DNA from: an uncultured Chloroflexia bacterium
GTDB lineage: Bacteria; Chloroflexota; Dehalococcoidia; GIF9; UBA5629
Length of the DNA stretch: 64,000 nucleotides
Assembly: GCA_963827985.1 (NCBI GenBank)
Contig: CAWHDI010000040.1
Coordinates: forward strand, 16,682-80,681
Direction: 5' to 3'
Shown here: piece by piece, positions 12,041 to 53,164 of the stretch
Layout: each line of letters starts with the position of its first letter
Numbering within the stretch: position 1 is the first letter of the stretch
The notes under the pieces: model-generated
Told to the model about the DNA's origin: nothing
What the model saw: the letters and a program-made list of their open reading frames with translations, nothing else
The model's database searches: none
Program-made: the position numbers and the translations under genes

Positions 12041-13533
12041 TCACTTTCGCTGCACTGCGCTTGACGTTTTAAGATAACAAAAGCTTTGATCTCCTCGCCG
12101 TATACCCTGTCCTTGACGCCTATGCAAGCTGATTCCTGAGCTTTGCGGGTGTCGGTTTATAACCTTCTCCACTTTCCTCGGGAAATATTTTCCCTGCTGC
12201 ATGATTAGGTCCTTTTGCGATCGGTTATGTGAAAAATAGCCGTCCAGGTCCTTGTACCCAATATCTCCCGAGTGTAGCCATCGTTTTTCATGGTCTGCGC
12301 CGTTTCTTCCGGCTGGTTCCAGTACCCTTTCATAATTGAAGGGCCTTTCATTACGATCTCCCCTGTCTGCCCGGCAGCCATTTCGCAATCGTTCTCGTCG
12401 AATACCTTCACCTGGTGTGCCGCCAGGATGACATTACCGATTGACCCGTATTTAGGCGGGCCGTGTGTACTGTTCGAGGTTCCGCCCGCGAAACTCTCCC
12501 GACATGCCCCAACCTTCATATATGTCCAGACCTGTCTTCTCCTTCCACTTTCGCCCCAGTTCAGGATCGAGTGGGGCTGAACCGGAAATGCAGCCTTTCA
12601 GAGAAGACAGGTCGTATTTGTCGAAATCCGGTTGATCCAGCAGGTGCACATACATGGTAGGTACAAGGGTCAACATGTTGATATGGCAGTCCTGGACCAT
12701 CCTCAGCACCCGTGCCGGGTCCCAGCGTTTAAGCATATAAAAAGAGCCGCCCACGAAACTGGTGAGAGTCAGGAAGGACAGGCCGTAAACATGCGATAGC
12801 GGCAGCACGGGCAGTGTTATTCGCCGCGGTTGAGGCCCGTGACAGTCAACGTTTCCTCAATTTCCTCGTGGGTCCTGAGATTCTTCATCTTGTAGCTGCT
12901 GCACAACGTAATTGAGTTGTTTGCGTACGCTTGACAGAAACGGCTGGTCACACTTGTCCACATCGAGTAATGGGTATGCATGACTCCTTTGGGATTGCCA
13001 GTCGTCCCGGACGTATATATAAGTGTGGCAAGATCGTCATTGTCCATATCTTGCATCGGCAATTGACCGCTCTGCTCGCTGAGCAGCTTGTCAAAATAGA
13101 GGGTTCCCGGGACATCGTCCCTGTCAATCACAATAATATTGGTTAGATCAGGGGCCCCTTTCTGAGCCTCTTTTACCCACGGCATGAAGTCGGATGTCGT
13201 GATGGTCACTTTGGCTCCGCTATCCCTGTAGATGTGTGATATCTGGTCCGGACGCAACATTGGATTCATCGGAACGATAACTGCCCCGATTTTTAAAGAG
13301 GCATGAATAACAGCGAGTATTTGAGCGCAATTCGGTAATTGGGTGGTTATGCGGTCTCCTTTTTGTATCCCCAGGGCCTTCAAAGCATTGCCCAGACGGT
13401 TTGCCATTGATTGCATTTCTGAGTTCGTATACCATTTGCCTTCGAAATGGAGCATATTGTAGGTGCCGTACATAGCGATGCTGTTATCGAAGATGGTTGC
13501 TACATTCATGCTTGCCCCCAATTTTGAAATCAA
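12041..13533 (-). pseudogene. AMP-dependent acyl-CoA synthetase/ligase, disrupted (at least 3 frameshifts)
   Basis: AMP-binding signature YTSGTTGNPKG in the 12817-13533 fragment. Downstream fragments 12452-12808, 12205-12519 and 12041-12388 continue the family in other frames. Confidence 0.75.
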
Positions 13534-26913: not shown

Positions 26914-27700
26914 CCGGCACGTTTACAAGCAAGGAAACGTTTCAATATCCGGATCCAACGACGGGTAAACTGTGTCCCCAATAACTAGCCGGGCTTCGTC
27001 ACGGGGCGTTTTAAACTCGAATCCAACGACGGATTTCTTGACCTGTAAGTGTCTGGTTTGGTCGCCAAAGGTCATTTTAATGCCATAGATGTACGCCCAT
27101 AGATGATCGGTCATAATAACTTTTGGAATCCTGCCAGTACGCTGATAGGCTTCTTTTAGAATGTCCTGCACGTCCTCTACCCTCTTGGTCGGGGATAATT
27201 TGGATGCGATAAGAAAACGGGTTTTTACGTCTATCACGTCCAATAGCCAGTAATCTTTTCCACCTATGTTAATTACAGTTTCATCCGCAAGCCACACGTA
27301 CCCGACTTCGGGCTCGCATCGGTTTGTTACGTTGACAGTACCTTTTGTGAATTGTGAAATCCAACTATATACACCATAATCCGACACGTCCATGTCGTAC
27401 AGTTGCCGTAGTTCTTGCCGGATGCTATTAACTGACATTCCCCTGTAATGCATCGAAATCGATGCAGCGATGGCATTTATAGAGGTTTTCATGTGTTCCA
27501 GTGTGTCTTTGGTATTAAACCTGTGATTACATGAATGGCCAAGGAAATATTGTTCACCTGTATTTGTTCCGTCTTTTACAACATCCGTGGAATTGCAGTA
27601 TTTACAGGTAATCGGTTTAGCTTCCATATAGTCCATATTTTCAGTCTAACAATAAGAGACTCCAAGTGGCAATAGTTTTGAGTTTGACTGCACTGGTATA
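26900..27700 (-). mobile_element. IS1-like insertion sequence (ends not defined)
   Basis: Transposase CDS of IS1 size. I could not identify terminal inverted repeats by eye. GC is intermediate between the host and the adjacent AT-rich island. Confidence 0.4.
26923..27636 (-). CDS. IS1-family transposase (single-ORF InsAB-type, Zn-finger + DDE)
   Basis: 237 aa. N-terminal CKYCNSTDVV...GHSCNHRF zinc finger, then DDE-like YVWLADETVINIGGKDYWLLDVIDVKTRFLIAS...IMTDHLWAYIYG. The size matches fused IS1 InsAB (~232 aa). Confidence 0.65.
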   Translation of the reverse strand: MDYMEAKPITCKYCNSTDVVKDGTNTGEQYFLGHSCNHRFNTKDTLEHMKTSINAIAASISMHYRGMSVNSIRQELRQLYDMDVSDYGVYSWISQFTKGTVNVTNRCEPEVGYVWLADETVINIGGKDYWLLDVIDVKTRFLIASKLSPTKRVEDVQDILKEAYQRTGRIPKVIMTDHLWAYIYGIKMTFGDQTRHLQVKKSVVGFEFKTPRDEARLVIGDTVYPSLDPDIETFPCL

Positions 27701-30664: not shown

Positions 30665-32215
30665 CTACTTGCCCTCGTTCTGCATCTTCTGCAGGAACGG
30701 CAATACTTTGAAGAAGGCCTTGATTTTCTGGGAAGTGCTTTGCGAGTACATGAACTTCATAGCATCTACCATTCCTTCCAGGCTGCCTTGCAGTACCGGG
30801 TAATGGTAGAATTCCTTCTTGGCCTTATTGGTATTCTCGGTAATGGATTTTATATCGGTAAACGCCCTCAAACCGACCTCGCTGTGATAGCATCCGATGC
30901 CTGATTCCTTGACGCCTCCGAAGGGCAAGGCCGGAACGGCGAACGTTATCAATGCATCATTGATATTGACCGAGCCGGTCTTGATCTTGGCAGCGATTTT
31001 TCTCCCTTCCTCGATGTCTCTGGTAAATACTGCCCCCGAGAGGCCGTAAGTTGTGCTGTTAGCAATCTTGACCGCTTCGTCTATATTGTCATAGGGTATT
31101 ACCGGCAGCAGCGGGCCGAATGTCTCATTCTTCATCACTTTCATGTCCAGTGTGACATCCGTGAGCACGACGGGAGGCAAGCACATGCCGTCCAGTTTGC
31201 AGTCCATGACTCCTTCGGGCAGCAGCTTTGCCCCTTTGGCCTTGGCGTCCGCAACCTGGTCTTCCACGATTTTATACTGCGATGTCATGGTCATGCTGCC
31301 CACGCAGCCTGTGGCCGTCCCGGATTTGAGGTTCTTTACGATGGCCATTAGCTTTTCTATGAATTGGTTGTAGACGGGACGTTCCACCAGGCATATCTCC
31401 ATGCCTATGCAGGTCTGGCCGCAATTGCTGAATGCGCCCCACGCTACGGCATTGGCGGCCCTGTCCAGGTCGGCGTTCTTCGTAACGATGGCAGCGTCCT
31501 TGCCGCCCAGTTCCATGATGGACGGAACGAGCCTTTCAGCCGCCTTCATATTCACTTTGCGGCCGATCTCCGTGGAACCCGTGAAAAAGAACATATCGAT
31601 ATCGGGGTTTTCTATCAGCGCCTGTCCCGTCACGGATCCGTTACCGGTAGCTATATTGACAACTCCCTCAGGCAACCCGGCTTTTTCCAGGAATTCCCTC
31701 ACCATGATCCCGCAATCGGTCGTCTGGCTGGAAGGCTTTAGTACCACCGTGTTGCCGGCGGCGATGGCTGAGATCACAGGACCTACCGACAGGCAGAAAG
31801 GATAGTTCCAGGGAGAGATTATTGCAACCACTCCCTTAGGCTCATATACATAATATAATTTCCTCCCCGGCATCATGGGATTTCCTTTCACCTTGACGGG
31901 GGCCAGGGTCTTGTCAGCGGTCTGGGAGTAATAATGTGTTACGTCGCAGGATGAATATACATCAGCCAATAGCGCCTCGAATTTGGTTTTACCGTTTTCG
32001 GCCGATACCCGTGCTGCGTAATCAAGTGCATTTTCGGTCAGTACCTCCGCGGCACGTGCCAGTATCTTCATCCTTTCCTTGATAGGGGTTGCCGACCACG
32101 TCTCAAATTTCTTGCGGGCTTTTTCTACCAGGGCGTCGACCTCTTTTCTGTCCATCTGCGGGTACGAAGCGACTTTTTGACCGGTCATCGGGTTGATTAC
32201 ATCAAATGTACTCAT
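30665..32215 (-). CDS. NAD(P)-dependent aldehyde dehydrogenase
   Basis: 516 aa, PF00171-type ALDH (GSTEIGRKV, ELGGKDAAIV, catalytic Cys in NCGQTC). Confidence 0.9.
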   Translation of the reverse strand: MSTFDVINPMTGQKVASYPQMDRKEVDALVEKARKKFETWSATPIKERMKILARAAEVLTENALDYAARVSAENGKTKFEALLADVYSSCDVTHYYSQTADKTLAPVKVKGNPMMPGRKLYYVYEPKGVVAIISPWNYPFCLSVGPVISAIAAGNTVVLKPSSQTTDCGIMVREFLEKAGLPEGVVNIATGNGSVTGQALIENPDIDMFFFTGSTEIGRKVNMKAAERLVPSIMELGGKDAAIVTKNADLDRAANAVAWGAFSNCGQTCIGMEICLVERPVYNQFIEKLMAIVKNLKSGTATGCVGSMTMTSQYKIVEDQVADAKAKGAKLLPEGVMDCKLDGMCLPPVVLTDVTLDMKVMKNETFGPLLPVIPYDNIDEAVKIANSTTYGLSGAVFTRDIEEGRKIAAKIKTGSVNINDALITFAVPALPFGGVKESGIGCYHSEVGLRAFTDIKSITENTNKAKKEFYHYPVLQGSLEGMVDAMKFMYSQSTSQKIKAFFKVLPFLQKMQNEGK

Positions 32216-32390
32216 TGTGTTTCACAAACCTCCTTTTTTATTTCAACCAATAGGCAACTGGCATTTTCATTCAATATTGAGTTGCACCCATGGAACTGCG
32301 GGTGTCTGCTGGAGTGCATAGTTAGGCAGGGAAGACCTGTCTACATTGAGGATAAACGATATAAACGCTGGAAATCTCTTCCAGCCATGC

Positions 32391-32575
32391 GGCCTCTGGA
32401 ACAAATTGTTCGCTCTCCTTTCCAAACTTGGGAGGCGCCACCGTTTCCAGTGGTACCCTCGGGCTTTCGCCACCGGCCGGGTAAACAATGCCTTTTCGGT
32501 TTAGTTATCCGGCTCGAAGAGTTCGTATTTAGTTAATGGTGCAAAAATAGCATGCTTAAGTCAATATGTCAATGG
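32391..32575 (-). promoter_or_regulatory. Copy 1 of a ~185-bp conserved promoter + leader element upstream of the ALDH gene
   Basis: About 90% identical to 35984-36168. Read on the minus (gene) strand it has TTGACA-17 nt-TATTTT, then a GC-rich leader with paired segments. Confidence 0.6.
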
Positions 32576-32801
32576 GTATCCGATGATCACCCATACCGTG
32601 TCATCACGAGTTGGCCCTACGCCCTAACATGTCATCACGAGAAGACCGAAGGTCGACGTGGTGATCTCCTCTTCGGCAGGCCGGGACGTAGTAGATTGCC
32701 ACGTCCGGGTTCCATCGGGCGAACTTGTCCCTACCATCAAAAGAAAACGGGGTGGTCCGGGACCGGACCACCCCCGATTTATCAACGCTGGTATCGACAG
32801 C

Positions 32802-35468
32802 CTAGTATGCTTCCTGATACAGCTTGATTATGTCGTTGGGATCGTTGACCGGCCGTCCGTTAAAGATGACTGCCGTATCGGCTATGGCGTGGAAAGCGCA
32901 GATCGGCAGGTTCTCTTCCGGCACGCCGACGTCACGCAGCTTCGTGGGATGTCCTACCTTCTTCATGAGCGCTTCAATGGCGTCTGCCGCGGCCAGGGCG
33001 GCCTCTTTGTCCTGCATGCCTTTGATATTTACGCCCAGCGCATGCGCCACCTGTGCCAGCTTACCGGCAGATGTTTCCACGTTGTAACGCATCACCTTGG
33101 GCAGGACGATGCCGCAGGCTGCCCCGTGGGGCACATGATGCAGCGCGCCGATAGTGTGTGCCATGCCGTGCGCCAGCCCGACCTGTGCAACGGTAAAGGC
33201 CCATCCTGCCATGGTGGCCGCCAGTTGCATATTCAGCCTGGCCTTCTCATTCTTCCCGTCTTCTGCCACCAGCGGCAGGTTCTCATTGATTATGCGTATG
33301 GCCTGCAGGGCCATGCCGTCGCAAATAAGATTGGACATGGTGCTGGTCATGGCCTCGATGGCATGCGTCATGGCGTCCATGGCCGTCGTCACGGTCAATA
33401 GCCTGGGCAGTGACATCGTAAACCGCGGGTCCAGGATGGCCACGTTTGGCGTGATCCTGGCGTCCACTATGAAGAGCTTGCGCCCTGCGCCTTTGCTGGT
33501 TAATACGGCAACATTGGTCACCTCACTGCCCGTACCGGACGTTGTCGGGATGGCGATATGAGGCGTTTGCGGCTCTGTCAGCACCAGCATGTTCAGATGG
33601 TCGTTGGCCTTGCCGCCGTTCTTAAGCGTTACGCAGACGCCTTTGGCGGTATCGATAACGCTGCCTCCTCCTACGCTCACCACGCAGTCCGCCTTCATTT
33701 CCCGTGCAGCATCGGTTGCTGCATCCACTGATTCGAGGTCGGGGTCTGCCGGCACTTTGTCGAAAATACCGGCGCAGAAATTGCCCAGCGCATTTTTCAC
33801 CAGGTCGGCCAGTCCGGCCTGCCTCACGCCCGGGTCAGTCAGGATGATTGCCCGCTTGCAGCCCAGGTCAACAATGGCTTTGCTGATTGCCGGCAGCGAT
33901 CCGTGTCCGGCGACCACGTTGGTAGGACAGTTATATCCGAAGCCGTCCACCCGTTTGTAATCCGACATAATCTGGAAAGTCATATTGGTTTTGGCGTCCG
34001 CCATGGAATTGACATGCACCCGCTTAATCTGGACATACTCGTGCAGGCCGGCGACACCCAGCTCACGCCCGACGCCTGACTGCTTGTATCCGCCGAATGG
34101 GCAATAATCGGCAAAGATGTGGTAGTTATTGATCCACATCGTGCCGGTGCGCACCTGGGCGGCAATCCTCTCGGCACGGGCGGTATTGGATGAGAATACG
34201 CCGCCGCCCAGTCCGTAGATGGAGTCGTTGGCAATCTCCACCGCCTCTTCGTCGCTGCTGTATTTCATAACGCAGACTACAGGCCCGAAAATCTCTTCCT
34301 GTGCGATGCGCATTTTATTGTTCACCTTGGCGAAGATAGTCGGGGCATAATAATATCCGCCCTTGATGCCTGCTACCTCCACACGTTTGCCGCCGGTTAT
34401 GAGCTCGGCCCCCTCTTCTTTGCCGATCTTAACGTAGCGTTCGACGGTTGCCAGCTGTTCCTTGCTTACCAGTGGCCCCTGGTGGCTGGTGGGGTCCATC
34501 TGGTAGCCGACACGCAGGGCTTCGGCCCGCTTCTTCATTTTGCCGAGGAACTCGTCATATATCTTGGCATGTACCAGTACCCGCGTGCCGGATTCGCATA
34601 CCTGCCCCTGGTGGAAGAACGTGCCGAAGCAGGCCCCTTCTACTGCCAGCTCCATATCAGCGTCATCGAGTATGATATTGGCCGATTTGCCCCCCAGTTC
34701 CAGTGTCACTTTTTTGACTGTCTCCGAGGCCATCCTCATGATCTCACGGCCGACTTCTGTGCTCCCGGTAAAAGCGACTTTATCCACGTCGGGATGCGTG
34801 CAAAGCACCTTGCCCAGCTCTCCGCCCGGACCGGTTATGACATTTAGAACGCCATCCGGTATGCCTGCCGCTTTGGCTGCCTCTGCGATGATGCAGGCGG
34901 TAATCGAAGTGTTCGAGGCCGGCTTTAACACAATGCAGTTGCCCATTGACAGCGCCGGCACTATCTTCCAGAAGGCCATGGTCATGGGGTAATTCCAGGG
35001 TATGATCCCCACGCAGACGCCTATCGGCTCCCTGCGTATATATTCGCGTCCCGGGGCGAACACGTTGCCTGAGGCAGGTATTTCCTCCTCCCACGGGAAT
35101 TTGGTGGCGGCTGCCAGGCTCAGGTTGCGTATAAATGAAATGCCCAGCAGCGGTTCATATTTGGCCAGTCCCATAACATGGCCGGCATCCATGGATTCTG
35201 TTGCCGCCAGCCTTAATCCCTGCTGGGCAATCTGGTCGGCAAAATCCTGCATCTTGGCCATGCGTGCCCGTGGTGATAGCCCGCTCCATACTCCGCTCTT
35301 GAAAGCCTTGCGGGCAGCTGCTATGGCAGCCTCCGCGTCCTCCTTGCCCGCCCGTGCCAGCGTGGCAATCGGCATTTCCGTGCCCGGATCGATCGATTCG
35401 AATGTTTTCCCGCTTGCCGCATCCACAAATTTGCCATCGATAAATAGCTTGTACTGGTCCACTGTCAA
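32802..35468 (-). CDS. Bifunctional aldehyde dehydrogenase (PF00171-type) / iron-containing alcohol dehydrogenase fusion protein
   Basis: 888 aa. N-terminal ~490 aa is a classical ALDH (ELGGKSANII, catalytic Cys in QGQVCESGTR). C-terminal ~390 aa is Fe-ADH (GGGSVIDTAKG, metal-binding His cluster GLAHGMAHTIGALHHVPHGAACGI). Confidence 0.85.
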   Translation of the reverse strand: MTVDQYKLFIDGKFVDAASGKTFESIDPGTEMPIATLARAGKEDAEAAIAAARKAFKSGVWSGLSPRARMAKMQDFADQIAQQGLRLAATESMDAGHVMGLAKYEPLLGISFIRNLSLAAATKFPWEEEIPASGNVFAPGREYIRREPIGVCVGIIPWNYPMTMAFWKIVPALSMGNCIVLKPASNTSITACIIAEAAKAAGIPDGVLNVITGPGGELGKVLCTHPDVDKVAFTGSTEVGREIMRMASETVKKVTLELGGKSANIILDDADMELAVEGACFGTFFHQGQVCESGTRVLVHAKIYDEFLGKMKKRAEALRVGYQMDPTSHQGPLVSKEQLATVERYVKIGKEEGAELITGGKRVEVAGIKGGYYYAPTIFAKVNNKMRIAQEEIFGPVVCVMKYSSDEEAVEIANDSIYGLGGGVFSSNTARAERIAAQVRTGTMWINNYHIFADYCPFGGYKQSGVGRELGVAGLHEYVQIKRVHVNSMADAKTNMTFQIMSDYKRVDGFGYNCPTNVVAGHGSLPAISKAIVDLGCKRAIILTDPGVRQAGLADLVKNALGNFCAGIFDKVPADPDLESVDAATDAAREMKADCVVSVGGGSVIDTAKGVCVTLKNGGKANDHLNMLVLTEPQTPHIAIPTTSGTGSEVTNVAVLTSKGAGRKLFIVDARITPNVAILDPRFTMSLPRLLTVTTAMDAMTHAIEAMTSTMSNLICDGMALQAIRIINENLPLVAEDGKNEKARLNMQLAATMAGWAFTVAQVGLAHGMAHTIGALHHVPHGAACGIVLPKVMRYNVETSAGKLAQVAHALGVNIKGMQDKEAALAAADAIEALMKKVGHPTKLRDVGVPEENLPICAFHAIADTAVIFNGRPVNDPNDIIKLYQEAY

Positions 35469-35818
35469 CCTCCTTTTATTAGCCTTTTATTATATTGACT
35501 GATCTTTATATCGCAGACACCGAACCCATCCCATTCGCTGATCGGTTTACTGGATGTGACTGAAAACCCTTTCCTGCCATGCTCTTCCGCATAACTGATA
35601 TTGATGTCCCCGCTGATTGCATACGTGTCAGGACTGATACTAAAAACGACTCCGCCTGTTTCAACGGTCAGATCGCCCTCATGTGCTGCCTCGGCGGACA
35701 TTACCAGCGATGCGTCGCAGCATCCGGTAAATCCCAGGTCAATGCGGATGAACTTTTGCAGGCCCTTTCCTTCTAATAACGAAAGGATGGCCTGCGATGC
35801 CACGGGACCCAGCGTCAA
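35465..35818 (-). CDS. HesB/IscA-like (Fe-S cluster biogenesis fold) small protein
   Basis: Pattern IRIDLGFTGCCDASLVMSAEAA..GDLTVETGGVVFSISPDTYAISGDINISY fits the HesB/IscA-like beta-sandwich but lacks the C-terminal CGC. It overlaps the fusion gene start by 4 nt, so it is first gene of that operon. Confidence 0.5.
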   Translation of the reverse strand: MTLGPVASQAILSLLEGKGLQKFIRIDLGFTGCCDASLVMSAEAAHEGDLTVETGGVVFSISPDTYAISGDINISYAEEHGRKGFSVTSSKPISEWDGFGVCDIKISQYNKRLIKGG

Positions 35819-35983
35819 TATTGAAATTGCTCTATCCTCCCCCTGTCTTTATTGTATATTGGGTCTTGAGATGCGCAAAAGTTGTAGCAAGTGATCGTCC
35901 GCTTGCACGCGCAGTAAGGGAAGGCGCAGTTGGAGATGCAGAAAATAACCGCCATTGGCGCTGGAAACAGATTACACCCATGG

Positions 35984-36168
35984 GGCACCTGGCACAAATT
36001 GTTTACTCTCCTTTCCAAATTTGGGAGGTGCCGCCGTTTCCAGTGGTACCCTCGGGCTTTCGCCACCGGCCGGGTAAACATGCCTTTTTGGTTTAGTTAT
36101 CCGGCTCGAAGAGTTCGTATTTGGACAATGGCGTAAAAATAACATGCTTATGAGAATATGTCAACTCA
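35984..36168 (-). promoter_or_regulatory. Copy 2 of the ~185-bp conserved promoter + leader element (upstream of the HesB-like/ALDH-ADH operon)
   Basis: Direct repeat of 32391-32575. TTGACA-17-TATTTT on the gene strand. Confidence 0.6.
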
Positions 36169-38315: not shown

Positions 38316-40024
38316 TCAGGAGCGGCTTTCCTTTAACAGTTTCTTGATAACATCCGTCAGCCCATCCAGGGGCTTTATATCCGCCTGCTGTTCCCTGCGC
38401 CATTTCAGTTCCACGCTGTTGGTCTTGAGCGTGCGTGCGCTTATGACGACGCGCAGCGGGATTCCTATCAGGTCGGCGTCATTGAATTTTACTCCCGGCG
38501 ATTCCTCCCGGTCGTCAAAAAGTACCTCTACGCCCGCCGCTGTCAGCTCGGCGTAAAGTTTTTCCGCCGCCTCCATTACCTTGCTGTCCTCTACCTTCAG
38601 AGCGCACAGGTATACTTCGTAGGGAGCGATGGGCACTGGCCACATTATGCCTTTGTCGTCATGGTTCTGCTCCACTGCTGCCGCCAGCAGCCTGCCGACG
38701 CCGATGCCGTAGCATCCCATGATGCAGGGCTTGTTCGATCCGTCCTTGTCCAGGTAATAGGCGCCCAGCCTTTCGCTCAGGAAAGTGCCGAGTTTGAACA
38801 CGTGTCCCACCTCGATGCCCCGCTGCGACGATAGTTCGTGGCTGCACCGGCTGCAAACCCCTCCGGCGCAGGCCTTCGCGATATCGGCGACTATATCCGC
38901 TTTGAAGTCCCTGGGATAGTTCACATTCTTAAGGTGCGTGTCCTTTTTATTGCCCCGGCCACGAAATTCGTGCCCGAGCTTGATCGAATCGTCGGCCACG
39001 ATCTTGATGCCCCTTCAGGTTGACCGGCGAGGCGTATCCCGCCACCAGTCCCGCTGCCTGGTTCTCAGCTTCCGTCGCAATATGCAGGTCGTTGCACTTC
39101 AAGCAGGTTCTTCAGCTTTATCTCGTTTACTTCCAGGTCGCCCCTGATTACCACGAACACCGGTTCACCGTCGGCCGTGTAGAACACGGATTTCAGTGTC
39201 TGGTCGGCTTTGACGCCTAAGAATAGCGCCACTTCCTCGATGGTCTTCAGGCCGGGTGTGGAGACTTCTTCCACCGGCAGGGGCTCTTCTTTCTTTTCCG
39301 GGGCTTTTGATGCTGATGGCCTTTTCCGCGTTGGCGGCATAGTCGCAGTGCAGGCAGTAAATGATTTCGTCTTCGCCGCTTTCGGTTATCAGCATGAATT
39401 CATGCGAGCCTTGCCGCCGATGGCCCCGCTGTCGGCTTCCACCATCACCGCGGGCAGCCCGCAGCTGGCGAAGATGTTCTTGTAGGCCTGCACCATCTTC
39501 TTATAGCTTTCGTCCAGTCCGGCCTCATCCGTGTCGAAGCTGTAAAGGTCCTTCATGATGAATTCGCGCACGCGCAGCAGCCCGCCCCTGGGCCTGGGCT
39601 CGTCCCTGAATTTGTTCTGTATCTGATAGGGCAGCTGCGGCAGGTCGCGGTAGCTTTGCACGGCCCGCCTCACCAGGTCGGTGATCACTTCCTCGTGCGT
39701 CGGCCCGATCGCCAGCGTATGCTCTTTGCGGTCCTTCACGGTGAAAAGCGTTTTGTCGAAGGACGGCAGCCTGCCGGATTTCTCCCACAGCTCTATTGGT
39801 TGCAGGGACGGCATATTCAGTTCCTGCCCGCCGGCTTTGTCCATCTCATCCCGGATGATGTTTTCTATCTTCTTTAATACCTTCCAGCCCGTGGGCATGT
39901 AGGAATATACCCCCGCCGCCACCTGCTGGATCATGCCGGCACGCACCAGGAACCGGTGGCTTGCCGTATCTGCATCTGAAGGGGCTTCCTTTAAGGTCCT
40001 GCCCAGTAGTCTGGAAAAGCGCAT
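38316..40024 (-). CDS. proS: Prolyl-tRNA synthetase, broken into at least 4 frames in this assembly
   Basis: Fragments 39389-40024 (class II motifs, YMPTGWKV, RPRGGLLRVREF), 39165-39395, 39065-39340 and 38316-38999 (anticodon-binding/C-terminal GCYGIGVGRLL) are colinear ProRS segments in different frames. Confidence 0.8.
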
Positions 40025-42824: not shown

Positions 42825-43784
42825 TCATGCAATCGACTCGCGCACCAGTTCAACGACGTCTTTCACTTCGATTAAATTTTCTTTGCCTGAAGTGAGGACT
42901 GCATCTTCAAACATGGTCATGCAATAGGGACAGGAAACGGCCAGTACCTGTGCCCCGCTTTCGATTGCCTGGTTGATACGCAATTCGGAGAACCGCTGCC
43001 CGCTCTTTGACTCCAGCCAGAGACCTCCCGAGCATCCACCGCAGCATAATGAATTTGCGTGATGGTCGCTCATTTCAACCAGGTCCACCCCCGGGATGCT
43101 GCGCAAAATGCGCCTGGGCTCCTCGTAAATGCCCTGGTACCTGCCCAGGCAGCAGGAATCATGATAGGCAACCTTTTCGTCAATGCTTTTGCGGAATTTA
43201 ACCCTGCTTGCGCTTATCAGCTCATCCATGTACAGCGCAATATGAGTTACCTCGAAATTGGCGCCAAATTCCGGGTACTCGTCTTTTAAAGTATTATAAC
43301 AATGAGGTGATCCGGTCAGTATCCTCTTCACGCCTGCTGCCTTCAGCGCCCGGATGTTATTCGATGCCAGGTTAGCAAAGAGCCCCTCTTTACCTGCCTT
43401 GCGGATGCTCTCGCCGCAGCAGGAAATATCTCCGTCGAGTACGCCGAAATCTACCTTTGCGGCATTGAGGACTTTTATCATGGATTCGGCTGCCTTACGG
43501 CACCTCTTGTCATAAGCCTGGTAGCAGCAGGTGAAGAGCATGATGTCAGTCTCTGCTGTATAAGCTCTTATACCCGTTTCCAGCGCCCATTTGGTGCGCC
43601 CTTCCCGCGGTTCGCCCAGCGGGTTGCCCACGCCGGCCAGGTTGGCAGCGACGGTGCGGAGAGAACGGGGGATTGAACCTGCTCCAACCTCGGAGATGAC
43701 CCTGCGCAAGGACCCTATCATTTTCGGTATATCCACGCTGCGGGCAGGCCTGCGCGCAACTATCTGCAGCCGACGCATTTCCAT
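42825..43784 (-). CDS. hdrB: Heterodisulfide reductase subunit B-like protein (two CCG domains)
   Basis: Two cysteine-rich CCG domains (LFTCCYQAYDKRCRK...ISCCGES and DSCCLGRYQG...SLCCGGCSGG). Last gene of the apr-qmo-hdr cluster. Confidence 0.8.
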   Translation of the reverse strand: MEMRRLQIVARRPARSVDIPKMIGSLRRVISEVGAGSIPRSLRTVAANLAGVGNPLGEPREGRTKWALETGIRAYTAETDIMLFTCCYQAYDKRCRKAAESMIKVLNAAKVDFGVLDGDISCCGESIRKAGKEGLFANLASNNIRALKAAGVKRILTGSPHCYNTLKDEYPEFGANFEVTHIALYMDELISASRVKFRKSIDEKVAYHDSCCLGRYQGIYEEPRRILRSIPGVDLVEMSDHHANSLCCGGCSGGLWLESKSGQRFSELRINQAIESGAQVLAVSCPYCMTMFEDAVLTSGKENLIEVKDVVELVRESIA

Positions 43785-43969
43785 ATCTCCTCATTCCCAA
43801 AATCCACCATCCAAGCTGGTGCTTGATGTATCAGGCTGCGCACACCAAAGCTGCCGCCGATGTTCCAGGGGCAGACAGCAGTGCATGTCCCGCACTGGTA
43901 ACAGTGCTCCAGGTCCTGCCCTCCCTGCAGTTTCAGCGTGTCTGTAATCTCAGGTGTTATCTCAGCCAT
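43760..43969 (-). CDS. hdrC: Heterodisulfide reductase subunit C-like 2x[4Fe-4S] ferredoxin (C-terminus in other frames)
   Basis: CYQCGTCTAVCP plus a second cluster CVGC..(frame change)..SCAQACP. The HdrC-like tail VDIPKMIGSLRRV is in the hdrB frame. Confidence 0.7.
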   Translation of the reverse strand: MAEITPEITDTLKLQGGQDLEHCYQCGTCTAVCPWNIGGSFGVRSLIHQAPAWMVDFGNEEIWKCVGCR

Positions 43970-43987
43970 CTTTGCTATCTTCCAGAC

Positions 43988-46118
43988 TTACAAATCCTTG
44001 TAGGGGTTCGGCCCGATCTCGATGATTCTATCGAGGAATTCGTTTAAAATGCCGGGCAGTTTGCCGTATTCTTCCATCGAGAGTTGCACTACGCGGAGCC
44101 GCTCCGGTTCAAGTGCCAGCTTATTGAGGGTGTCCTGCATCTTCTGGATCCTTGTTTCTGTAAGTTCGCTCCCGGTGATATTGTGGCATTGATAATCGTC
44201 CCCGTGCTTGCAGCCAACCATGATAACGCCGTCGATGCCTCTGGAAAGTGCATCTGTAATCCAGACCATGTTTATCGATCCCAGGCACCTGACCGGTATT
44301 GTCCGGATGAACGGATTGAATTGCATGCGATGGATGCAGGCCATATCAAGTGCCGGGTAAGCATCGTTTTCACACAGGAACGCAAGTATGCGCGGCTTAT
44401 TTTCATCGGCCTCAGGTATCTCAATGGCCTTTATCATCGATCCTGTGCTGTCAACCGAATAATCGGCAAATGATATGATCCTTTCGGGACATGCGCCCAT
44501 GCAGATGCCGCATCTTCTGCACCGCGTCGGATTTGGCAGCGGATTGAACTTGTCGTCCTCGTCATACATGCCGAAGGGGCACTCTTCAGTGCATCTTTTG
44601 CATTGAGTGCACCTTGCCATGTAAAGCTCGGGGTAGCTTTTATCGCCTGCCCTGGGATGCGTAGACACTCCCCTGGCAGCCATTTCTATGCATTGAATAG
44701 CCTTGAGGGCTGCGCCGTTGGCATCCTCGTGGCTGGAGAGACTATCCATAGGCTGCCTGGCACAGCCCGGCAGCGTAGATGCCTGTCCGGCGGGTTTCGT
44801 AGGGGAAACAGATAAAATGGGAGTCAGGGAACCCGTATTTAAGTTCCGGCAGTTCTTTGCCCTGCCTGTATGACAGGTTGAGCACTGGCGGGGTGGATGG
44901 GACCATGCCGGTTGCCAGGATAACCAGGTCGACATTCAACTTTACTCTCTCGCCCAGCAGCAGGTCTTGCGCTTCCACCGTAATCCCGTTAGCAGTGGTA
45001 GTAACTTCCGGCGTCTCAGTTTTGGACAGGAATATGGACCCCGCCTCCTGGACATTCCTGTAAAAGTCCTCGTATAGCGAGGGTGTGCGGATGTCTTTAT
45101 ATAGAATATAGGCTTTTGCATCAGCATTATTCCCGGTAAGGTAGAGCGCCTGCTTCAGTGAGGTCATGCAGCAGAAGGACGAGCAATACGGCAGATGTTC
45201 GCTGTTCCGCTGCCCGGCGCACTGGATGAATACTGCACTCTGAACAACCTTGCCGTCCGAAGGACGTTTTATCACGCCATCGAAGGCCAGTTGTTCCATT
45301 TGGAGGTTGGTGATGATGTCAGGATGGCTGCCGAAACCGAGGTACCCCAACCGGGCGGCATTGTACGGTTGAAAGCCGGTGGCCACAATTATTGCGCCTG
45401 CTTTGATTTGTTCAGTCCCGCCGGGACCCTTCAGGGAGACATCAAACATGCCGGGGGAGCCCTCGATTCTCTCCACTTCGGTGGACTTGCAGACCCTGAT
45501 CATAGCGTGATTTTCGACGCTGCCGACAACCCCGGCTGTCCCGGTCTCTTCCGGTTCCTTGTACGGGGGGCGCTTGGGATACTGGCGATATAGCTTGTTC
45601 ATCCATCCGCCCAGTGACGGGCTTTTTTCCACCAGGCAAACCTCGTATCCTGCTTCTGCCCCGCCCAGTGCGGCGCTCATGCCCGTGATACCGCCGCCGA
45701 TCACCAGGATGGTCTTGTTGACCTGCGACAAGAACGGTGTTGCGCGTGATATTTTTACAGCCCTGGCAAGCCCCATGCGGAGGTGGTCTTCCGCCATTGC
45801 TTGTGTATCTGGATCGCCCGCTGGATGGGACCATGCCACCTGCTCTCTTAAATTCACCCTTTCCTGCACTACGGGATGGTCAAAATTGAAACATTCTTGT
45901 TTCACTCTCGGTGAGCAGGCCCCGATCACTACGGTATGCGCACCGCCAGCCAGGCCCTCATCGATCAGCATCCTCCCTTCCACGCTGCACAAGCATGGGT
46001 GAATCTGGTAGATGTCAGCATGATATTGCGTGGCAGCTATATTGAGCAGCCTGTCCATGGACAGGGCTTCCCCGATGCCGCATCCGCTGCACAGGTATAC
46101 GGCAAGCTTATTTTCCAT
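43988..46118 (-). CDS. qmoB: QmoB-like protein: HdrA-like FAD oxidoreductase fused to ferredoxin and MvhD domains (one frameshift near 44745)
   Basis: ORF 44742-46172 (start MENKLAVYLCSGCG, FAD motif ILVIGGGITGMSAALG, ends ...GIYAAGLCQ) continues in ORF 43988-44935 as PMDSLSS...ALKAIQ, then 2x[4Fe-4S] (CTQCKRCTEECP, CRRCGICMGACP) and the MvhD/FlpD domain (RILAFLCENDAYPALD...VGCKHGDDYQCHNITGS). Confidence 0.75.
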
Positions 46119-47379
46119 TGGCCTGCCTTCTCCTGGCTGAGTGGATTGATTTAAGGACGGCGCCTGTCGCATCCCTGGTTGACGAACTCACGTCCATCGG
46201 CCTCTTGGCACATCCCGCAGCATAGATTCCCTTCGGGCCATTGACCACGAACCCGCGATCATGGGCACTGGCCCCGCCGGGAAGCCATTCTGTCGCAGCA
46301 GGGACCATGCCGGTGGCCAGCACGGCCATATCTACCCTTTGCCTGACGATTTTGCCCTGCGACGTATCCTCAACTTCAACTATAAGGTCCTTTGTTGCCG
46401 GGTCTTCCTTTATTCTTGAAACCTTCCCGCGTATGAGCGAAACGCCTTTCATGTCATGGATATGCTGGTAAAAATCTTCCTGTGTACCAGGCGCCCGTAT
46501 GTCAATGTAATAGACGATGGCACTGGCGTCAGGGTTTCTCTCCTTTATGTAGGTGGCCTGCTTGAGCGAAGCCATGCAGCAGACGCCGGAGCAGTAGGAC
46601 AGGTGGTTTACGTCTCGTGAACCGGCGCATTGTACAAAAGCCACTGTGGATACCGCCTTTCCGTCCGAAGGGCGGACAATCGGCCCGCCACGCAGCCCGG
46701 TGGTTGCTGCCAGCCTTTCCATCATCATGTTGGTTATGACGTTGGGGAACTGGCCGAAGCCTAGCCTGTCAAGGCGGGCAGCGTCATAGGGCTGCCATCC
46801 TGTGGCCACTAATATCGAACCGCAATCAACGGTGATTTGCCGGTCGCACATCTGCAGGTCGATGGCCCCGTAGCGGCAGGCGGTGACGCATTTACTGCAC
46901 TCGATGCCCCGGCATGTTTTACTGTCCACCGTGTAAATCTGTGGAAAGGCCTGCTCATGCGGCAGGTAAATGGCGCCGGTGTTGTTCCACCCATAATTAA
47001 AATCGTCCGGCCTCTGTACCGGGCAAACACCTGCACAGTCACCACAGGCCGTGCACCTGTCGTTCACCTTGCGGGGCGACAACCGGACCGTGGCCTTGAA
47101 ATCGCCTTCCGTGCCCGAAATAGATTCCAGGCCGGCGTGCGTGAACACCCGTATCCGCGGATTGTTCCTGATGCGCTTGAAATTTAACTCGAGGCCGCAG
47201 GTAGGTGGGCACAGCTTGGGGAAATAGCGGTTCATCCTGATGGCCATGCCGCCCAGGAATGGTTCCTTTTCGATCAGAACTATGTTTTGGCCGGCGTCAG
47301 CCGCTTCAACCGCCGCGGTTATCCCGCTTACTCCTCCTCCCACTACCAGGATATCGGCTGAAATGACAGGCTCATCCAT
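46108..47379 (-). CDS. qmoA: QmoA-like HdrA-type FAD-dependent oxidoreductase
   Basis: 423 aa. ILVVGGGVSGITAAVEAADAG FAD fold, YFPKLCPPTCGLE motif, inserted 2x[4Fe-4S] ferredoxin (CTACGDCAGVCP, CSKCVTACRYG). Size and motifs match QmoA. Confidence 0.8.
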   Translation of the reverse strand: MDEPVISADILVVGGGVSGITAAVEAADAGQNIVLIEKEPFLGGMAIRMNRYFPKLCPPTCGLELNFKRIRNNPRIRVFTHAGLESISGTEGDFKATVRLSPRKVNDRCTACGDCAGVCPVQRPDDFNYGWNNTGAIYLPHEQAFPQIYTVDSKTCRGIECSKCVTACRYGAIDLQMCDRQITVDCGSILVATGWQPYDAARLDRLGFGQFPNVITNMMMERLAATTGLRGGPIVRPSDGKAVSTVAFVQCAGSRDVNHLSYCSGVCCMASLKQATYIKERNPDASAIVYYIDIRAPGTQEDFYQHIHDMKGVSLIRGKVSRIKEDPATKDLIVEVEDTSQGKIVRQRVDMAVLATGMVPAATEWLPGGASAHDRGFVVNGPKGIYAAGCAKRPMDVSSSTRDATGAVLKSIHSARRRQANGK

Positions 47380-49760: not shown

Positions 49761-50615
49761 TTACATATAACCGAGGCCGCGCAAACGTTTCATCATTTTT
49801 TCTTTATCCTGGCGCCGGCCTGCTCTCTCTGTAGTGTGTTCGAGGTCCTGTTCCCAGGCAGGGACGCCGGGGGCCGCTATTGCGCTGGTGGTCTTGGCTC
49901 CCAGCGAACGGTAACCTTTCTCGTACAGAATGCAGTAGGGTATTTTAAATACCTGGTACGTATTCCACAGGTCCCTTTCCGTGAAGTGCAGGATGGGCTT
50001 GATGCGGACGTGTTCGGGGATGAGATAAGCAGCCTCTTTTTTCTCAAAATAATCATCCTCGGCGCGGGCGTTCTGCTCGTCCCGCCTCAGCCCCTGGAAA
50101 ATTGCCTTGACCCCAAACTGCTCAATATACATGTTGAACATGACTGTTTTCATCAGGTGATTGCCGGTGTATGATTCCGCCTCGAAGGGAAAAGTGTCTT
50201 CCTTGTAGTCGATACGCTTCAGTTCAGCCTGGTTCCTCTCGTTCAGGTCCTTGACCTTGACGATGTTATTTAATTTGCCGCCGGCGGCCTTGATAACATC
50301 GTCGTTGCGCATCCACGTCAGGTCCAGTTTCCATTCTGCCGCATATCGGTTCATGAAATCGTGTATCTCATCGAACGTATCAAATTCGTCGATGGTCATG
50401 ACCTTGGGGAGCTTAATTTTATCCTCTGCGCAGACCTGGCGGATGATCCAGAGTGCAAGGGTGCTGTCCTTGCCGCCCGTCCATGTGATAGCCATGTCGT
50501 CTATTTTGAACTTGGTGAATGACTCCCGCACAACTTCTTTTGATTTATCGACAAGCGCCTTGCAATTCTTTTCCAGGTCAGTCATTGTATCCTCCCGTTT
50601 CATATCTTTGTCCAT
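49761..50615 (-). CDS. Phosphoadenosine-phosphosulfate-reductase-family (ATP-PPase fold) protein lacking the C-terminal catalytic Cys motif
   Basis: P-loop-like ITWTGGKDSTLALWII and GLRRDEQNARAED motifs of the PAPS_reduct family. No ECGLH/Cys-cluster tail. Ends 16 nt upstream of aprB. Confidence 0.7.
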   Translation of the reverse strand: MDKDMKREDTMTDLEKNCKALVDKSKEVVRESFTKFKIDDMAITWTGGKDSTLALWIIRQVCAEDKIKLPKVMTIDEFDTFDEIHDFMNRYAAEWKLDLTWMRNDDVIKAAGGKLNNIVKVKDLNERNQAELKRIDYKEDTFPFEAESYTGNHLMKTVMFNMYIEQFGVKAIFQGLRRDEQNARAEDDYFEKKEAAYLIPEHVRIKPILHFTERDLWNTYQVFKIPYCILYEKGYRSLGAKTTSAIAAPGVPAWEQDLEHTTERAGRRQDKEKMMKRLRGLGYM

Positions 50616-51808
50616 CGTCTTATTCTTGGTTTTAGCATTGCTTCCAATGTGGCTGTTTCTGTAGAAGACCGCGCAATATTGTTTAGCTCACCGGGGTCTT
50701 TCCTGAGGTCATATAGCTCCGGCGATTTGGTATCCGCCCTGTAGATAAGTTTCATGTCCCCCTTGCGGCAAAAATACACGTCTTTGCCGATATCGCCGCC
50801 TTTGACGCTTTTCTGGTCGATGGCTTCCCCGAAGGCGCATTTATTGGCGTATTTGCATGCAGGCAGCAGGGATTGGCCTTTGAATGACTGAGGCGGTTCG
50901 AGCCCGAACAGGTTCAGGATGGTCGGAGGTATATCTGCGCTGCTGACAACTTCGCCCCGGCATGAATTTCCTCCTGTCCCATATATAAGGAGGGGAACAT
51001 CGATCAGTTCCGAATATAGCTTATCGTCGTGGGACAGGCCGCCGTGTTCGTTGAATTCATCACCATGGTCGCTTGTAATGATAACGGCCGTGTCCTTGAG
51101 GATACCCATGCCGTCCATTGATCGGAAGAACGATTCTACATAGGTATCGACTTCCCTGACGTGGACGTCATACAATTTCTTCAGCAGCGCCACTTTTGCA
51201 GGGTCGGAGACATCCCTCTTCAGCAGAGTGTTCTCGAATAGTTCATACATTTCATCCTGGTTGATGGTTATGGACGGGTCTACCATGTCGACATAGCGCC
51301 TTTCGGGCATATAGGGTTCATGGACATCCATGTAATGGAGCCAGAGAAAGAATGGGGCATAGGTTTTTGATTTAGTGTGTTGCGACAACCAGTCCGTAAC
51401 CTTTTTGTTAATGACATTGCCGCGTATGTAAGGTATGCGCTCGTCATCGAGGTCATCATCCAGGGAGTCATAGAAGGTATCCCATCCGCGGTCCCAGCCG
51501 AGCATTGCGCTGCAATAAGGGTTGGAATGGAATCCTGCGGTATAAACGCCTACCTGTTTCAGAACTTCCGAGACCAATGTGCGCCGGGGATCCAGCCCTT
51601 CCGGTTTGCCGTAATCAAGGTAATAACCCGAACACAGGATGGCGGGAAAGGATGCCTGGGTATACGGCCCTGCGCTCTGGCACCCGGTGAACACCGTGCT
51701 GCGGTCTTTGAGGGAATCAATGAACGGGGTCAATCCCCTGGTATTCCCGTACAGCCCGAATACATCCTTCCGGGTTGCATCCAGTGTTAATAAGACAACA
51801 TTTTTCAT
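50600..51808 (-). CDS. Sulfatase (alkaline-phosphatase-superfamily sulfuric ester hydrolase)
   Basis: LTLDATRKD, GPYTQASFPAIL and ITSDHGDEFNEHG sulfatase motifs. No classical C/S-x-P-x-R site seen, so possibly a sulfatase-like hydrolase or transferase. Confidence 0.8.
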   Translation of the reverse strand: MKNVVLLTLDATRKDVFGLYGNTRGLTPFIDSLKDRSTVFTGCQSAGPYTQASFPAILCSGYYLDYGKPEGLDPRRTLVSEVLKQVGVYTAGFHSNPYCSAMLGWDRGWDTFYDSLDDDLDDERIPYIRGNVINKKVTDWLSQHTKSKTYAPFFLWLHYMDVHEPYMPERRYVDMVDPSITINQDEMYELFENTLLKRDVSDPAKVALLKKLYDVHVREVDTYVESFFRSMDGMGILKDTAVIITSDHGDEFNEHGGLSHDDKLYSELIDVPLLIYGTGGNSCRGEVVSSADIPPTILNLFGLEPPQSFKGQSLLPACKYANKCAFGEAIDQKSVKGGDIGKDVYFCRKGDMKLIYRADTKSPELYDLRKDPGELNNIARSSTETATLEAMLKPRIRRWTKI

Positions 51809-51839
51809 AGCTATTATTTACTGAAACAGGGGCCGGGCT

Positions 51840-53164
51840 TTAATATCCCAGCCGTTTCATCCTTGATTCCATCTTCTTCTTTTTGTCGGCATTGGTTGAA
51901 CTGGGCCTGGGAGCCTGGACGGCATCCGATTGGTCGGTGGACAGTTCACTGGAAGCTGTGCCTTTCACCAGCATTTCTGAAGTTCTGCCGGAGATAGGTC
52001 TCAAATTAGGGTTGAATGCTTCAGGTCCGTATAGCCTGTTCCACATGTCCATTTTATCTGTATCAAACTTCTTGCCCTGCAGGCCCGGGTAGTCGGGATC
52101 AAAGCGATGGCAGCGGAATGTGCAGTTACTCAGACCATAAGGTGAAAGGGTGTCCCTGTGATTGTAAAAAGGCACTATGTATTCCCAGACGATTTCGCCG
52201 GTGGGGTTTACTTCGAGGAAACGCCCCATACCGCCTTCGCAGATCAGGGTGTTGCCGTTGGGCTGCCTTTCAGCGCCGCCGATATAGGTTGTAACGAAAT
52301 CTACCGGGTTCTCCGGCCTGTATTCCCACTCAACTTCATTGGTTTTGGGGTTTACTTCGAGAACACGGCTGCCCTCCGGTGGGAAATAATCGACGTTGTA
52401 CCTGTTGTTATTAAGCACAAGAATGTTGCCATTGTCGAGCATTGTCGGGTTGTGCGGCATGGAAAGGAAACCCTTGCCCCAGCGCCACTTAATATCGCCG
52501 GAATTTCTGTCGACGATAAAGAGGTTATCGCAGCCGAAGGAGCAGATCATCAGGTCGCCATTGGGCAGTTCTTCCAGTGAATTGAGCCCTACCCAGGCCA
52601 GCCTCATCTGCAGCGGTGCGAAACAATCAAGTTCGTAATCAAAATGCTTGTAACCTATCCACTCCCAGGCTATTTTACCTTGTGGAGTGATCTCCTGTAT
52701 TACGTTGCCGTGCAACGGTAAATCTGCTCCAGAATACTCTTGGGCGAAATCCCGCCCTGCACTTTGGCAGCCACATCTTCAGGTAAGGGTACATATTTCA
52801 TAATCATGGTATTGCCGTTCTTAAGGCGTACGCGGTCATGGGCATCCATGTTATCCTGATCATATTTCCAAACAACTTTGCCATCCCAGTCAATCTCGAC
52901 GACGCTTTTGCATACCGTCGGTACTGATGATGGCGGGGCGCCCACGTCTTCAATGCCGCAAAGTATGTTGCCGCTGGGAAGCAGGTCGGCGTGCAGTCGA
53001 ACCCATCCCGGCAGCTTCCAGCGGTGTACGAAACGGCCCTGCATATCGATTAGCCAGGCGCTGCCCGGGACCTGTGTCATGGGGCTGAACATGGTGAAGC
53101 CGTTATACGCTTTGTGCGGCTGATATTCGGTGACAGATTGCAATGCTCTTCTTGCTGGTGACAT
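51840..53164 (-). CDS. Arylsulfotransferase (ASST)-like beta-propeller protein, one frameshift near 52705
   Basis: ORFs 52700-53164 (N-terminal) and 51840-52715 (C-terminal) carry repeated blades (GNILVLNNNRY..., NGNTLICEGG...) resembling ASST/aryl-sulfate sulfotransferase propellers. Confidence 0.55.

Follow-up and report, generated by a model that had tools for sequence, protein, structure and literature searches.

Two Moco/Tuco riboswitch aptamers head adjacent aldehyde dehydrogenase and BdhE-type transcription units in an uncultured Dehalococcoidia bacterium

The 64-kb stretch of DNA analysed here as a whole (the window; contig CAWHDI010000040.1 of an uncultured Dehalococcoidia bacterium) carries a duplicated element in front of two adjacent minus-strand units for aldehyde oxidation, i.e., a gene for an aldehyde dehydrogenase (ALDH), and genes for a HesB-like protein and for a fusion of ALDH and alcohol dehydrogenase (ADH) of the BdhE type. 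Each copy consists of a promoter, a known riboswitch aptamer and the first part of the leader located downstream of the aptamer. It is observed that: (i) both copies belong to the known class RF01055 of Rfam, the Moco/Tuco (molybdenum/tungsten cofactor) riboswitch, and the RNA is thus not new; (ii) both occupy a promoter-proximal position in the 5' untranslated region (5'-UTR); (iii) their link with ALDH/BdhE genes is conserved; (iv) the operon is split into two units, each headed by a riboswitch. This known class appears here, and in related uncultured Dehalococcoidia, in a gene context for which no earlier report was found. The chances are in our opinion about even that the sensing of a pterin cofactor controls cofactor-independent aldehyde/alcohol oxidation, most likely by turning the genes down at high cofactor.

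The whole window was scanned against Rfam at the curated thresholds (gathering threshold of 36 bits for RF01055). Exactly two matches were obtained in the 64 kb and both are RF01055: copy 1 at 32399-32531 (minus strand, 62.2 bits) and copy 2 at 35992-36123 (minus strand, 67.3 bits), the latter with helices P1-P5 including a short P3 (GGC-GAAA-GCC). Both aptamers span positions 1-135 of the 135 positions of the model, i.e., they are untruncated, and their E-values (about 1e-12 to 1e-15) are far beyond chance. In a permissive rerun on the locus, lowering the bar to E <= 1 brought up no further Rfam family in the leaders. CGAGCC, AGGG, GGAAAC, CCUCCC and UUGGAAAGGAG are core sequences that do not vary among homologous leaders. 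The sole core deviation, CUUCGAG for CUCCGAG, is the same in copies linked to TupA-like and ECF genes. Within one scan, the ALDH-type copies reach 59-68 bits, vs. 58-72 bits for canonical moaA/transporter members.

The first-pass annotation of this DNA, made from the letters alone, had proposed a shared cis-regulatory leader RNA before two aldehyde-oxidising units. It was right in kind and missed the known identity of the RNA. It had also considered aldehydes or alcohols as effectors; owing to the membership in RF01055, the likely ligand is a molybdo- or tungsto-pterin cofactor instead. The genes downstream of the two aptamers are neither those of Moco/Tuco synthesis or of molybdenum/tungsten (Mo/W) transport, nor those of cofactor-using enzymes, and their products have no molybdopterin-binding domain.

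The direct repeats (32391-32575 and 35984-36168), first estimated at about 90% identity, align with 164 identities out of 186 positions (88.2%) and one indel of 1 nt. Repeat-finding widens the similarity to 32352-32572 vs. 35945-36164 at 82-88%, and beyond this span the identity of the flanks falls to 41-49%, i.e., the level of unrelated sequence. The motif TTGACA-17 nt-TATTTT noticed on the gene strand is found in both copies, each of which also has the TG of an extended -10 box (TTGACA-17 nt-TG-n-TATTTT): promoter 1 at 32572-32544 and promoter 2 at 36164-36136, both on the minus strand. Promoter 1 is kept in the homologous loci L042/L043, promoter 2 matches 10 of 12 positions in addition to TG, and the -35 box TTGACA is invariant across homologous leaders. 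The promoters end about 12 nt 5' of each aptamer, thus the RNA would begin just upstream of P1; the second start of transcription is predicted about 6 nt 5' of aptamer 2.

The distance of about 180 nt between element and genes is also correct: from the end of the aptamer to the start codon there are 183 nt for copy 1 (ATG at 32215) and 173 nt for copy 2 (TTG at 35818). The leader had been called GC-rich, which does not hold (GC of 0.51-0.52 vs. 0.514 for the window). The plus-strand open reading frames (ORFs) reported over the element do exist (32177-32536 and 35797-36096); no sign of coding was seen in them, no test being aimed at them. It must be noticed that two direct copies of CTCGTGATGACA (12 nt), 31 nt apart, are localized at 32591-32641 (minus strand), with the -35 box of promoter 1 following after about 20-70 nt. 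This pair lies inside a stretch of about 120 nt which is missing both from copy 2 and from L042/L043, collinear in other respects, and it might be where a transcription factor dedicated to the ALDH unit binds.

Covariation was analysed on 13 distinct ALDH/BdhE-type leaders belonging to a narrow clade, with slid pairing partners as a control. The family structure P1-P5 has 92.7% of cells paired vs. 31-50% with slid partners. Two-sided (compensatory) changes are found at 5 pairs in P2/P4, 3 pairs of this type being in P4. P1, P3 and P5 are invariant in the 13 leaders, hence uninformative for covariation. The GAAA loop of P4 is invariant as well, and the bulge of P2 (CUAAAC...GCAU(U)GU) aligns with the tetraloop-receptor positions CUAa...AuGg of the model, the tertiary contact being a prediction.

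A short P3 is present (G-GGC-GNRA-GCC-C), whose loop varies only among GAAA, GCAA, GCGA and GUGA. According to a published correlation, which is not a binding test, aptamers with P3 correspond to Moco and those without P3 to Tuco (PMC2408646; restated in PMC11725836). By this rule the present architecture points to Moco, with Tuco as a further possibility. A P3-bearing sibling precedes a TupA-like gene, though the TupA-like label is itself below the NCBIfam cutoff.

Two other helices had been drawn in the leader. CCGGUGG:CCACUGG overlaps P3 and P4 and is not a helix of the family. It is paired at 99% in 13 homologues, solely via one-sided transitions opposite a wobble-capable U or G and with no compensatory change. 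Since it conflicts with P3/P4 and P4 is compensatorily supported, it was rejected as a conserved helix, and would be at most a transient alternative fold. As for GGCACCU...AGGUGCC, i.e., the pairing of the 3' strand of P4 with the leader, it does stand out in copy 2 (z = -2.5), but it is at chance level in copy 1 (z = 0.1) and in the other homologues. It was thus rejected as a general feature.

The nearest relatives of both proteins are from uncultured Dehalococcoidia, and riboswitch-ALDH(-BdhE) leaders are found in no fewer than 11 further contigs, all distinct and of the Dehalococcoidia type. Among the assemblies bearing the riboswitch are GCA_041653995.1, GCA_964437795.1 and GCA_016927965.1. 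RF01055 is localized upstream of ALDH orthologues with 72-94% identity (L004, L007, L012, L013, L017-L019, L026, L027, L032, L042 and others), e.g., 86% for L012, 77% for L013 and 76% for L004 and L007/L008. It is missing before the ALDH orthologues of L009, L014 and L016 (75-68% identity). The homologous aptamers always face an ALDH or BdhE gene, about 165-185 nt away. The search of genome contigs gave a single close relative, whose sequence ends short upstream.

Public metagenome contigs were scanned for the exact pattern of a 21-nt core segment, CCTCCCAANTTTGGAAAGGAG, i.e., in a manner blind to gene context. All of the 19 loci obtained have an RF01055 match. ALDH orthologues follow in 11 of them, several of which continue into a HesB-like gene and BdhE as one operon. 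The other 8 loci precede moaA (2), a TupA-like binding protein (2), a TonB-dependent receptor, an ABC binding protein, an ECF component and a protein with no Pfam match (1 each). Borderline matches to the NiCo riboswitch RF02683 (38.4-39.1 bits, gathering threshold of 37) were also seen in L007 (7498-7579, minus strand), L008 (1618-1699, minus strand) and L026 (2013-2094, plus strand), where they fall in the 5' part of a gene for a short-chain dehydrogenase, divergent from the Moco-ALDH leader; this context is odd and the matches may be false positives.

The genes of the window downstream of the aptamers are those first described, all on the minus strand. The ALDH (30665-32215, 516 aa) is of the NAD(P) type (Pfam PF00171 at 4.9e-143), with a Shine-Dalgarno sequence GGAGG at 32229-32233. 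Its closest solved structures are benzaldehyde, 4-hydroxybenzaldehyde, phenylacetaldehyde and betaine-aldehyde dehydrogenases, i.e., aromatic and aliphatic types. The first gene of unit 2 is a small ORF (35465-35818) whose IscA/HesB likeness is weak (NCBIfam IscA_HesB_Se at 6.6e-9, below cutoff; no Pfam match). It is followed by the fusion of 888 aa (32802-35468; Pfam Aldedh, Fe-ADH and ADH_Fe_C). This fusion matches PDB 9LDL (BdhE) end to end (residues 4-888, 1307 bits, E = 0) and obtains 324 bits with the NCBIfam AdhE model vs. a cutoff of 951; on these scores it is assigned to the BdhE type and not to AdhE. BdhE activity has been assayed with NAD(H) (PMC12454647). The proteins targeted by the riboswitches carry PF00171 and Fe-ADH domains only, i.e., they have no need for a Mo/W-pterin cofactor. 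An integrase-core ORF (rve, DDE), probably of an insertion sequence (IS) element, is localized about 3 kb downstream of the ALDH gene (26923-27636, minus strand).

A strong intrinsic terminator follows BdhE at 32749-32774 (minus strand; 11-bp stem with 9 G-C pairs, then GUUUUCUUUU) and separates the units. It is kept in L042/L043 with changes on both strands of the stem. Owing to this terminator between BdhE and promoter 1, the units would be transcribed separately and thus each needs its own sensor. The ALDH and the ALDH domain of BdhE are only 33% identical; gene duplication was therefore rejected as the source of the repeat, only the leader having been copied.

The gene order differs among the homologous loci. 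One riboswitch heads ALDH-(HesB)-BdhE in L004, L013 and L017. In L013/L027 a HesB-like homologue separates ALDH from BdhE, and in L036-L041 one precedes BdhE. In L042/L043, where the ALDH is 94% identical, the order is BdhE 3' end-terminator-promoter-riboswitch-ALDH. In L036, where BdhE is 97% identical, the 3' part of a riboswitch of the copy-2 type precedes HesB-BdhE, this orthologous copy being truncated. The split layout of the window (one riboswitch per unit, with a terminator between) recurs in three other samples. Judged from these gene orders, the lineage of the window has split one operon, each half of which retained its own promoter and riboswitch copy. A further arrangement was observed in L034 (11692-14140): downstream of the riboswitch come what remains of a truncated ALDH gene (194-aa ORF, 68% identical over 109 aa) and then BdhE. 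It could be an intermediate toward a riboswitch-BdhE unit like that of copy 2.

The mechanism proposed is as follows. In the 5'-UTR of each unit, a sigma-70-type promoter is directly followed by the Moco/Tuco aptamer; the RNA would bind the metal-pterin cofactor and set the level of the NAD(P)-linked enzymes oxidising aldehydes and alcohols. At high cofactor, ALDH and BdhE would go down, since Mo/W-pterin aldehyde oxidoreductases, e.g., the aldehyde:ferredoxin oxidoreductase (AOR), can do the job. At low cofactor, ALDH and BdhE would go up. Such a cofactor-sparing logic would be the same as that of the cobalamin riboswitches repressing B12-independent isozymes.

Repression by the cofactor, which we hold to be an evenly balanced proposition, is favoured over activation for three reasons: (i) the OFF direction is documented for the class, i.e., for moaA of E. 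coli (PMC2408646) and for fetABC1/focA of E. limosum (PMC11725836); (ii) Mo/W-pterin aldehyde oxidoreductases catalyse the same oxidation, and a tungsten AOR can replace an NAD(P)-ALDH in Aromatoleum (PMC6365974); (iii) in relatives devoid of the riboswitch, HesB-BdhE is clustered with a MoaD/ThiS-like gene, an Fe-ADH gene and a 615-aa AOR with AFOR_N/AFOR_C domains. The broader scheme, in which the riboswitch was recruited in an uncultured Dehalococcoidia clade as a cofactor-sparing switch, with ALDH and BdhE derepressed when the Mo/W-pterin is scarce and off when the pterin oxidoreductases work, is put forward tentatively, with slightly more doubt than belief.

The Dehalococcoidia clusters without riboswitch are localized at 5575-13387 in L037 and at 5572-12813 in L039/L040/L041, and contain genes for the HesB-like protein, BdhE, the MoaD/ThiS-like protein, SCP2, Fe-ADH and the 615-aa AOR. 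They are flanked by TetR regulators and adjoin genes of the benzoyl-CoA-reductase/2-hydroxyacyl-CoA-dehydratase type (BcrAD_BadFG, HGD-D).

Concerning the expression platform, the GGAG of the aptamer does not serve as ribosome binding site; the actual site lies about 170 nt downstream. The ALDH-type leaders contain successively the aptamer, a box A CUGUUCCAG and a hairpin B:C. The latter (GCUGGAA-GAGAU-UUCCAGC) lies at 32367-32385 on the minus strand and is found in the RNAalifold consensus of 12 leaders; its third pair changes from U-A to C-G in three sequences, i.e., it is compensated. In copy 1 this hairpin was also flagged as terminator-like. Box A (UGUUCCAG, about 32395-32404), which precedes B:C, is a near-copy of the 3' arm of B:C and is also able to pair with the GGAAAGG of the aptamer itself. 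Copy 2 has lost B:C, and a hairpin with a 4-bp stem stands in its place (CGCC-AAU-GGCG then GUUAUUUUCU; 35940-35960, minus strand). From its sequence and the alignment with L036, in which it is kept, this is probably a weak terminator-like element.

Several read-outs were considered. For sequestration of the ribosome binding site, the predicted accessibility of this site is slightly lower in most leaders when P1 is forced, which would fit the OFF direction, but the pairing partners differ among leaders. A leader peptide was rejected, the sense-strand ORFs (32267-32488 and 35815-36081, minus strand) being alike only where the RNA is conserved, with different frames, starts and stops. A stretch with more C than G is present in every leader and starts 45-67 nt after P1. 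Its mean excess is 0.17 vs. 0.089 for the background (sd 0.07), the individual values being in the top 3-32% of the background with the best window picked after looking. Rho-dependent control is thus mentioned as a lead only. The candidates for the read-out are an unconventional terminator, Rho or a long-range occlusion of the ribosome binding site.

Several points weigh against the repression scheme. In vitro ligand binding has never been demonstrated for the class, type member included (PMC2408646). The presence of P3 predicts Moco, whereas AOR enzymes are typically tungsten enzymes. No gene for AOR, Moco biosynthesis or Mo/W transport was found in the window or in the fetched riboswitch-bearing flanks, thus the cofactor-dependent isozyme is only presumed in the genomes which bear the riboswitch. 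A U-rich tail directly follows B:C in copy 1 only, and most homologues have no canonical U-tract, which speaks against a conventional intrinsic terminator at B:C as a general read-out. The candidate antiterminator A:B has an A.C mismatch in L013 and L007, where B went from U to C and A is unchanged, while B:C is compensated. An anti-aptamer pairing of the purine-rich 3' side of P1 (GGAAAGGAGAG) with a CU-rich tract about 50 nt downstream was rejected because its energies are ordinary (z of 0 to -1.4 in 13 of 14 leaders, with 400 random genomic 50-mers as reference). Constrained folds give no consistent switching between states. Lastly, the chain GGAAAGG / CUGUUCC / GCUGGAA / UUCCAGC is equally readable as an ON switch.

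The last point leads to the same class acting in the ON direction: the cofactor would activate ALDH and BdhE, the oxidising enzymes being made only when a Mo/W-dependent upstream step works. This step could be a Mo hydroxylase producing alcohols, or AOR reducing acids to aldehydes. The four segments of the chain, i.e., the 3' core of the aptamer, A, B and C, allow either {core:A + B:C} or {aptamer + A:B}, and if B:C terminates, a ligand-stabilised aptamer would favour read-through. Moreover, the operon of relatives runs on into genes for an acyl-CoA ligase and an enoyl-CoA hydratase, like a catabolic pathway, and the occurrence of BdhE and AOR as neighbours in other genomes is consistent with their co-use. 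Nevertheless, B:C has no canonical U-tract in most leaders, A:B is not kept by compensation, folding shows no consistent switch, and no ON member of the class is described in PMC2408646 or PMC11725836. Activation is thus regarded as unlikely, though not negligible.

Two other explanations have been weighed. The leaders might be a specificity variant of the Moco fold which senses an aldehyde/alcohol-related molecule or another pterin. Ligand-switched variants are known for other riboswitch folds, and genes of this kind are unusual targets for the class. However, all the conserved core positions fit the family consensus, the scores match those of canonical members, and the CUUCGAG deviation occurs in the TupA-like- and ECF-linked copies too; such a variant is very improbable. 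Still less credible is a reading without RNA function, in which the repeat would be mobile or dispersed, or a protein-operator DNA site present in duplicate. About 220 bp are duplicated, promoter included, an IS-type integrase is localized 5 kb away, and the 12-nt direct repeats found upstream of promoter 1 only are possibly protein-binding. On the contrary, terminal inverted repeats are missing, all homologues point at genes of the same families, the transcribed aptamer is the best conserved part and shows compensatory base-pair changes, and the flanks diverge to background identity. The first-pass annotation held that many copies scattered irrespective of gene context would point to a dispersed repeat; only two copies exist in the 64 kb and the homologues are always 5' of the same genes. 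Owing to this conserved gene link and to the recurring split layout, the dispersed repeat is considered as refuted.

Some features of the window are unrelated to the riboswitches. The prolyl-tRNA synthetase (38316-40024, minus strand) is split in three consecutive ORFs (core; editing; core and anticodon-binding domain), and at the equivalent place L012 has one intact gene of 565 aa. Other genes look truncated, i.e., AMP-binding (12817-13533) and MFS (5071-5853). These split or truncated genes suggest assembly frameshift errors or pseudogenes. An anaerobic way of life would agree with the heterodisulfide-reductase-like set at 42825-47379 (minus strand), which comprises two FAD/4Fe-4S oxidoreductases and one CCG-domain protein. 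Genes for sulfatase, arylsulfotransferase-like and phosphodiesterase-family proteins are localized at 50600-52715 and 6454-8463 (minus strand), and several MFS transporters are found across the window.

As regards annotation, a duplicated leader which looked unexplained is a known riboswitch, and this is worth recording. The two paralogous leaders, with intact aptamers and diverged downstream parts, are a natural pair for dissecting how the aptamer is coupled to expression. The riboswitch and the AOR neighbourhood both bear on the physiological role of the BdhE family. If the back-up logic is true, then: (i) this would be the first case of the RF01055 class controlling cofactor-independent isozymes, and the B12 rule would hold for Mo/W-pterin cofactors as well; (ii) Mo/W supply would be tied to alcohol/aldehyde turnover in Dehalococcoidia which are abundant in the subsurface and in peat; (iii) BdhE, a recent family of uncertain physiological role, would gain a testable role beside the tungsten AOR and a first physiological clue, as the NAD-linked counterpart of the AOR route.

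The comparison with known systems begins with the Moco riboswitch itself (RF01055; leader of E. coli moaA; Regulski et al. 2008, PMC2408646). The present copies share with it P1-P5, the junction nucleotides, the optional P3 (present here), the GAAA tetraloop on P4, the receptor-like CUAA...AUG bulge in P2 and the 5'-UTR location, with scores well above the curated threshold. They differ from it by their targets, i.e., NAD(P)-dependent ALDH and BdhE instead of Moco synthesis, Mo/W transport or Moco/Tuco enzymes, and, as regards E. coli moaA, by the GGAG of the aptamer, which is not a ribosome binding site here. The class as described in 2008 covers cofactor synthesis, transport and cofactor-using enzymes, and Dehalococcoidia (Chloroflexota) are absent from its list of hosts (PMC2408646). 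A survey of regulons in 2013 has an isozyme category for cobalamin and nothing analogous for Moco (PMC3766115). The study of E. limosum extends the contexts of the class to iron transporters and FocA (PMC11725836). The ALDH/BdhE context was not found in the searchable open-access literature, a mention elsewhere being possible.

The Tuco riboswitches of E. limosum (wor1, tupABC, fetABC1/2, focA; PMC11725836) are likewise one family in front of several operons of one genome. Their targets include genes with no part in making or using the cofactor (iron transporters, FocA), and an aldehyde setting exists there too (the W-dependent WOR1). However, they have no P3 and are assigned to Tuco, whereas the Dehalococcoidia copies have P3, and the aldehyde oxidiser regulated in E. 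limosum is the tungsten enzyme itself, whereas it is a cofactor-independent NAD enzyme here.

The proposed logic is closest to that of the cobalamin riboswitches, for which metE and nrd are examples of B12-independent isozymes under control. The corresponding category is «Isozymes of B12-dependent enzymes» (PMC3766115). The aptamer class and the ligand are different, and both the OFF direction and the presence of the cofactor-dependent isozyme in the same genome are presumed here. As for the enzyme, the BdhE family was described in 2025 as a convergent ALDH-ADH fusion, arisen independently of AdhE (Konno et al. 2025, PMC12454647); that paper mentions neither riboswitches nor tungsten, and molybdenum comes up there only in passing, in an unrelated remark about insertase fusions. 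The fusion of the window is equal to BdhE (PDB 9LDL, about 886 aa) in domain order and length.

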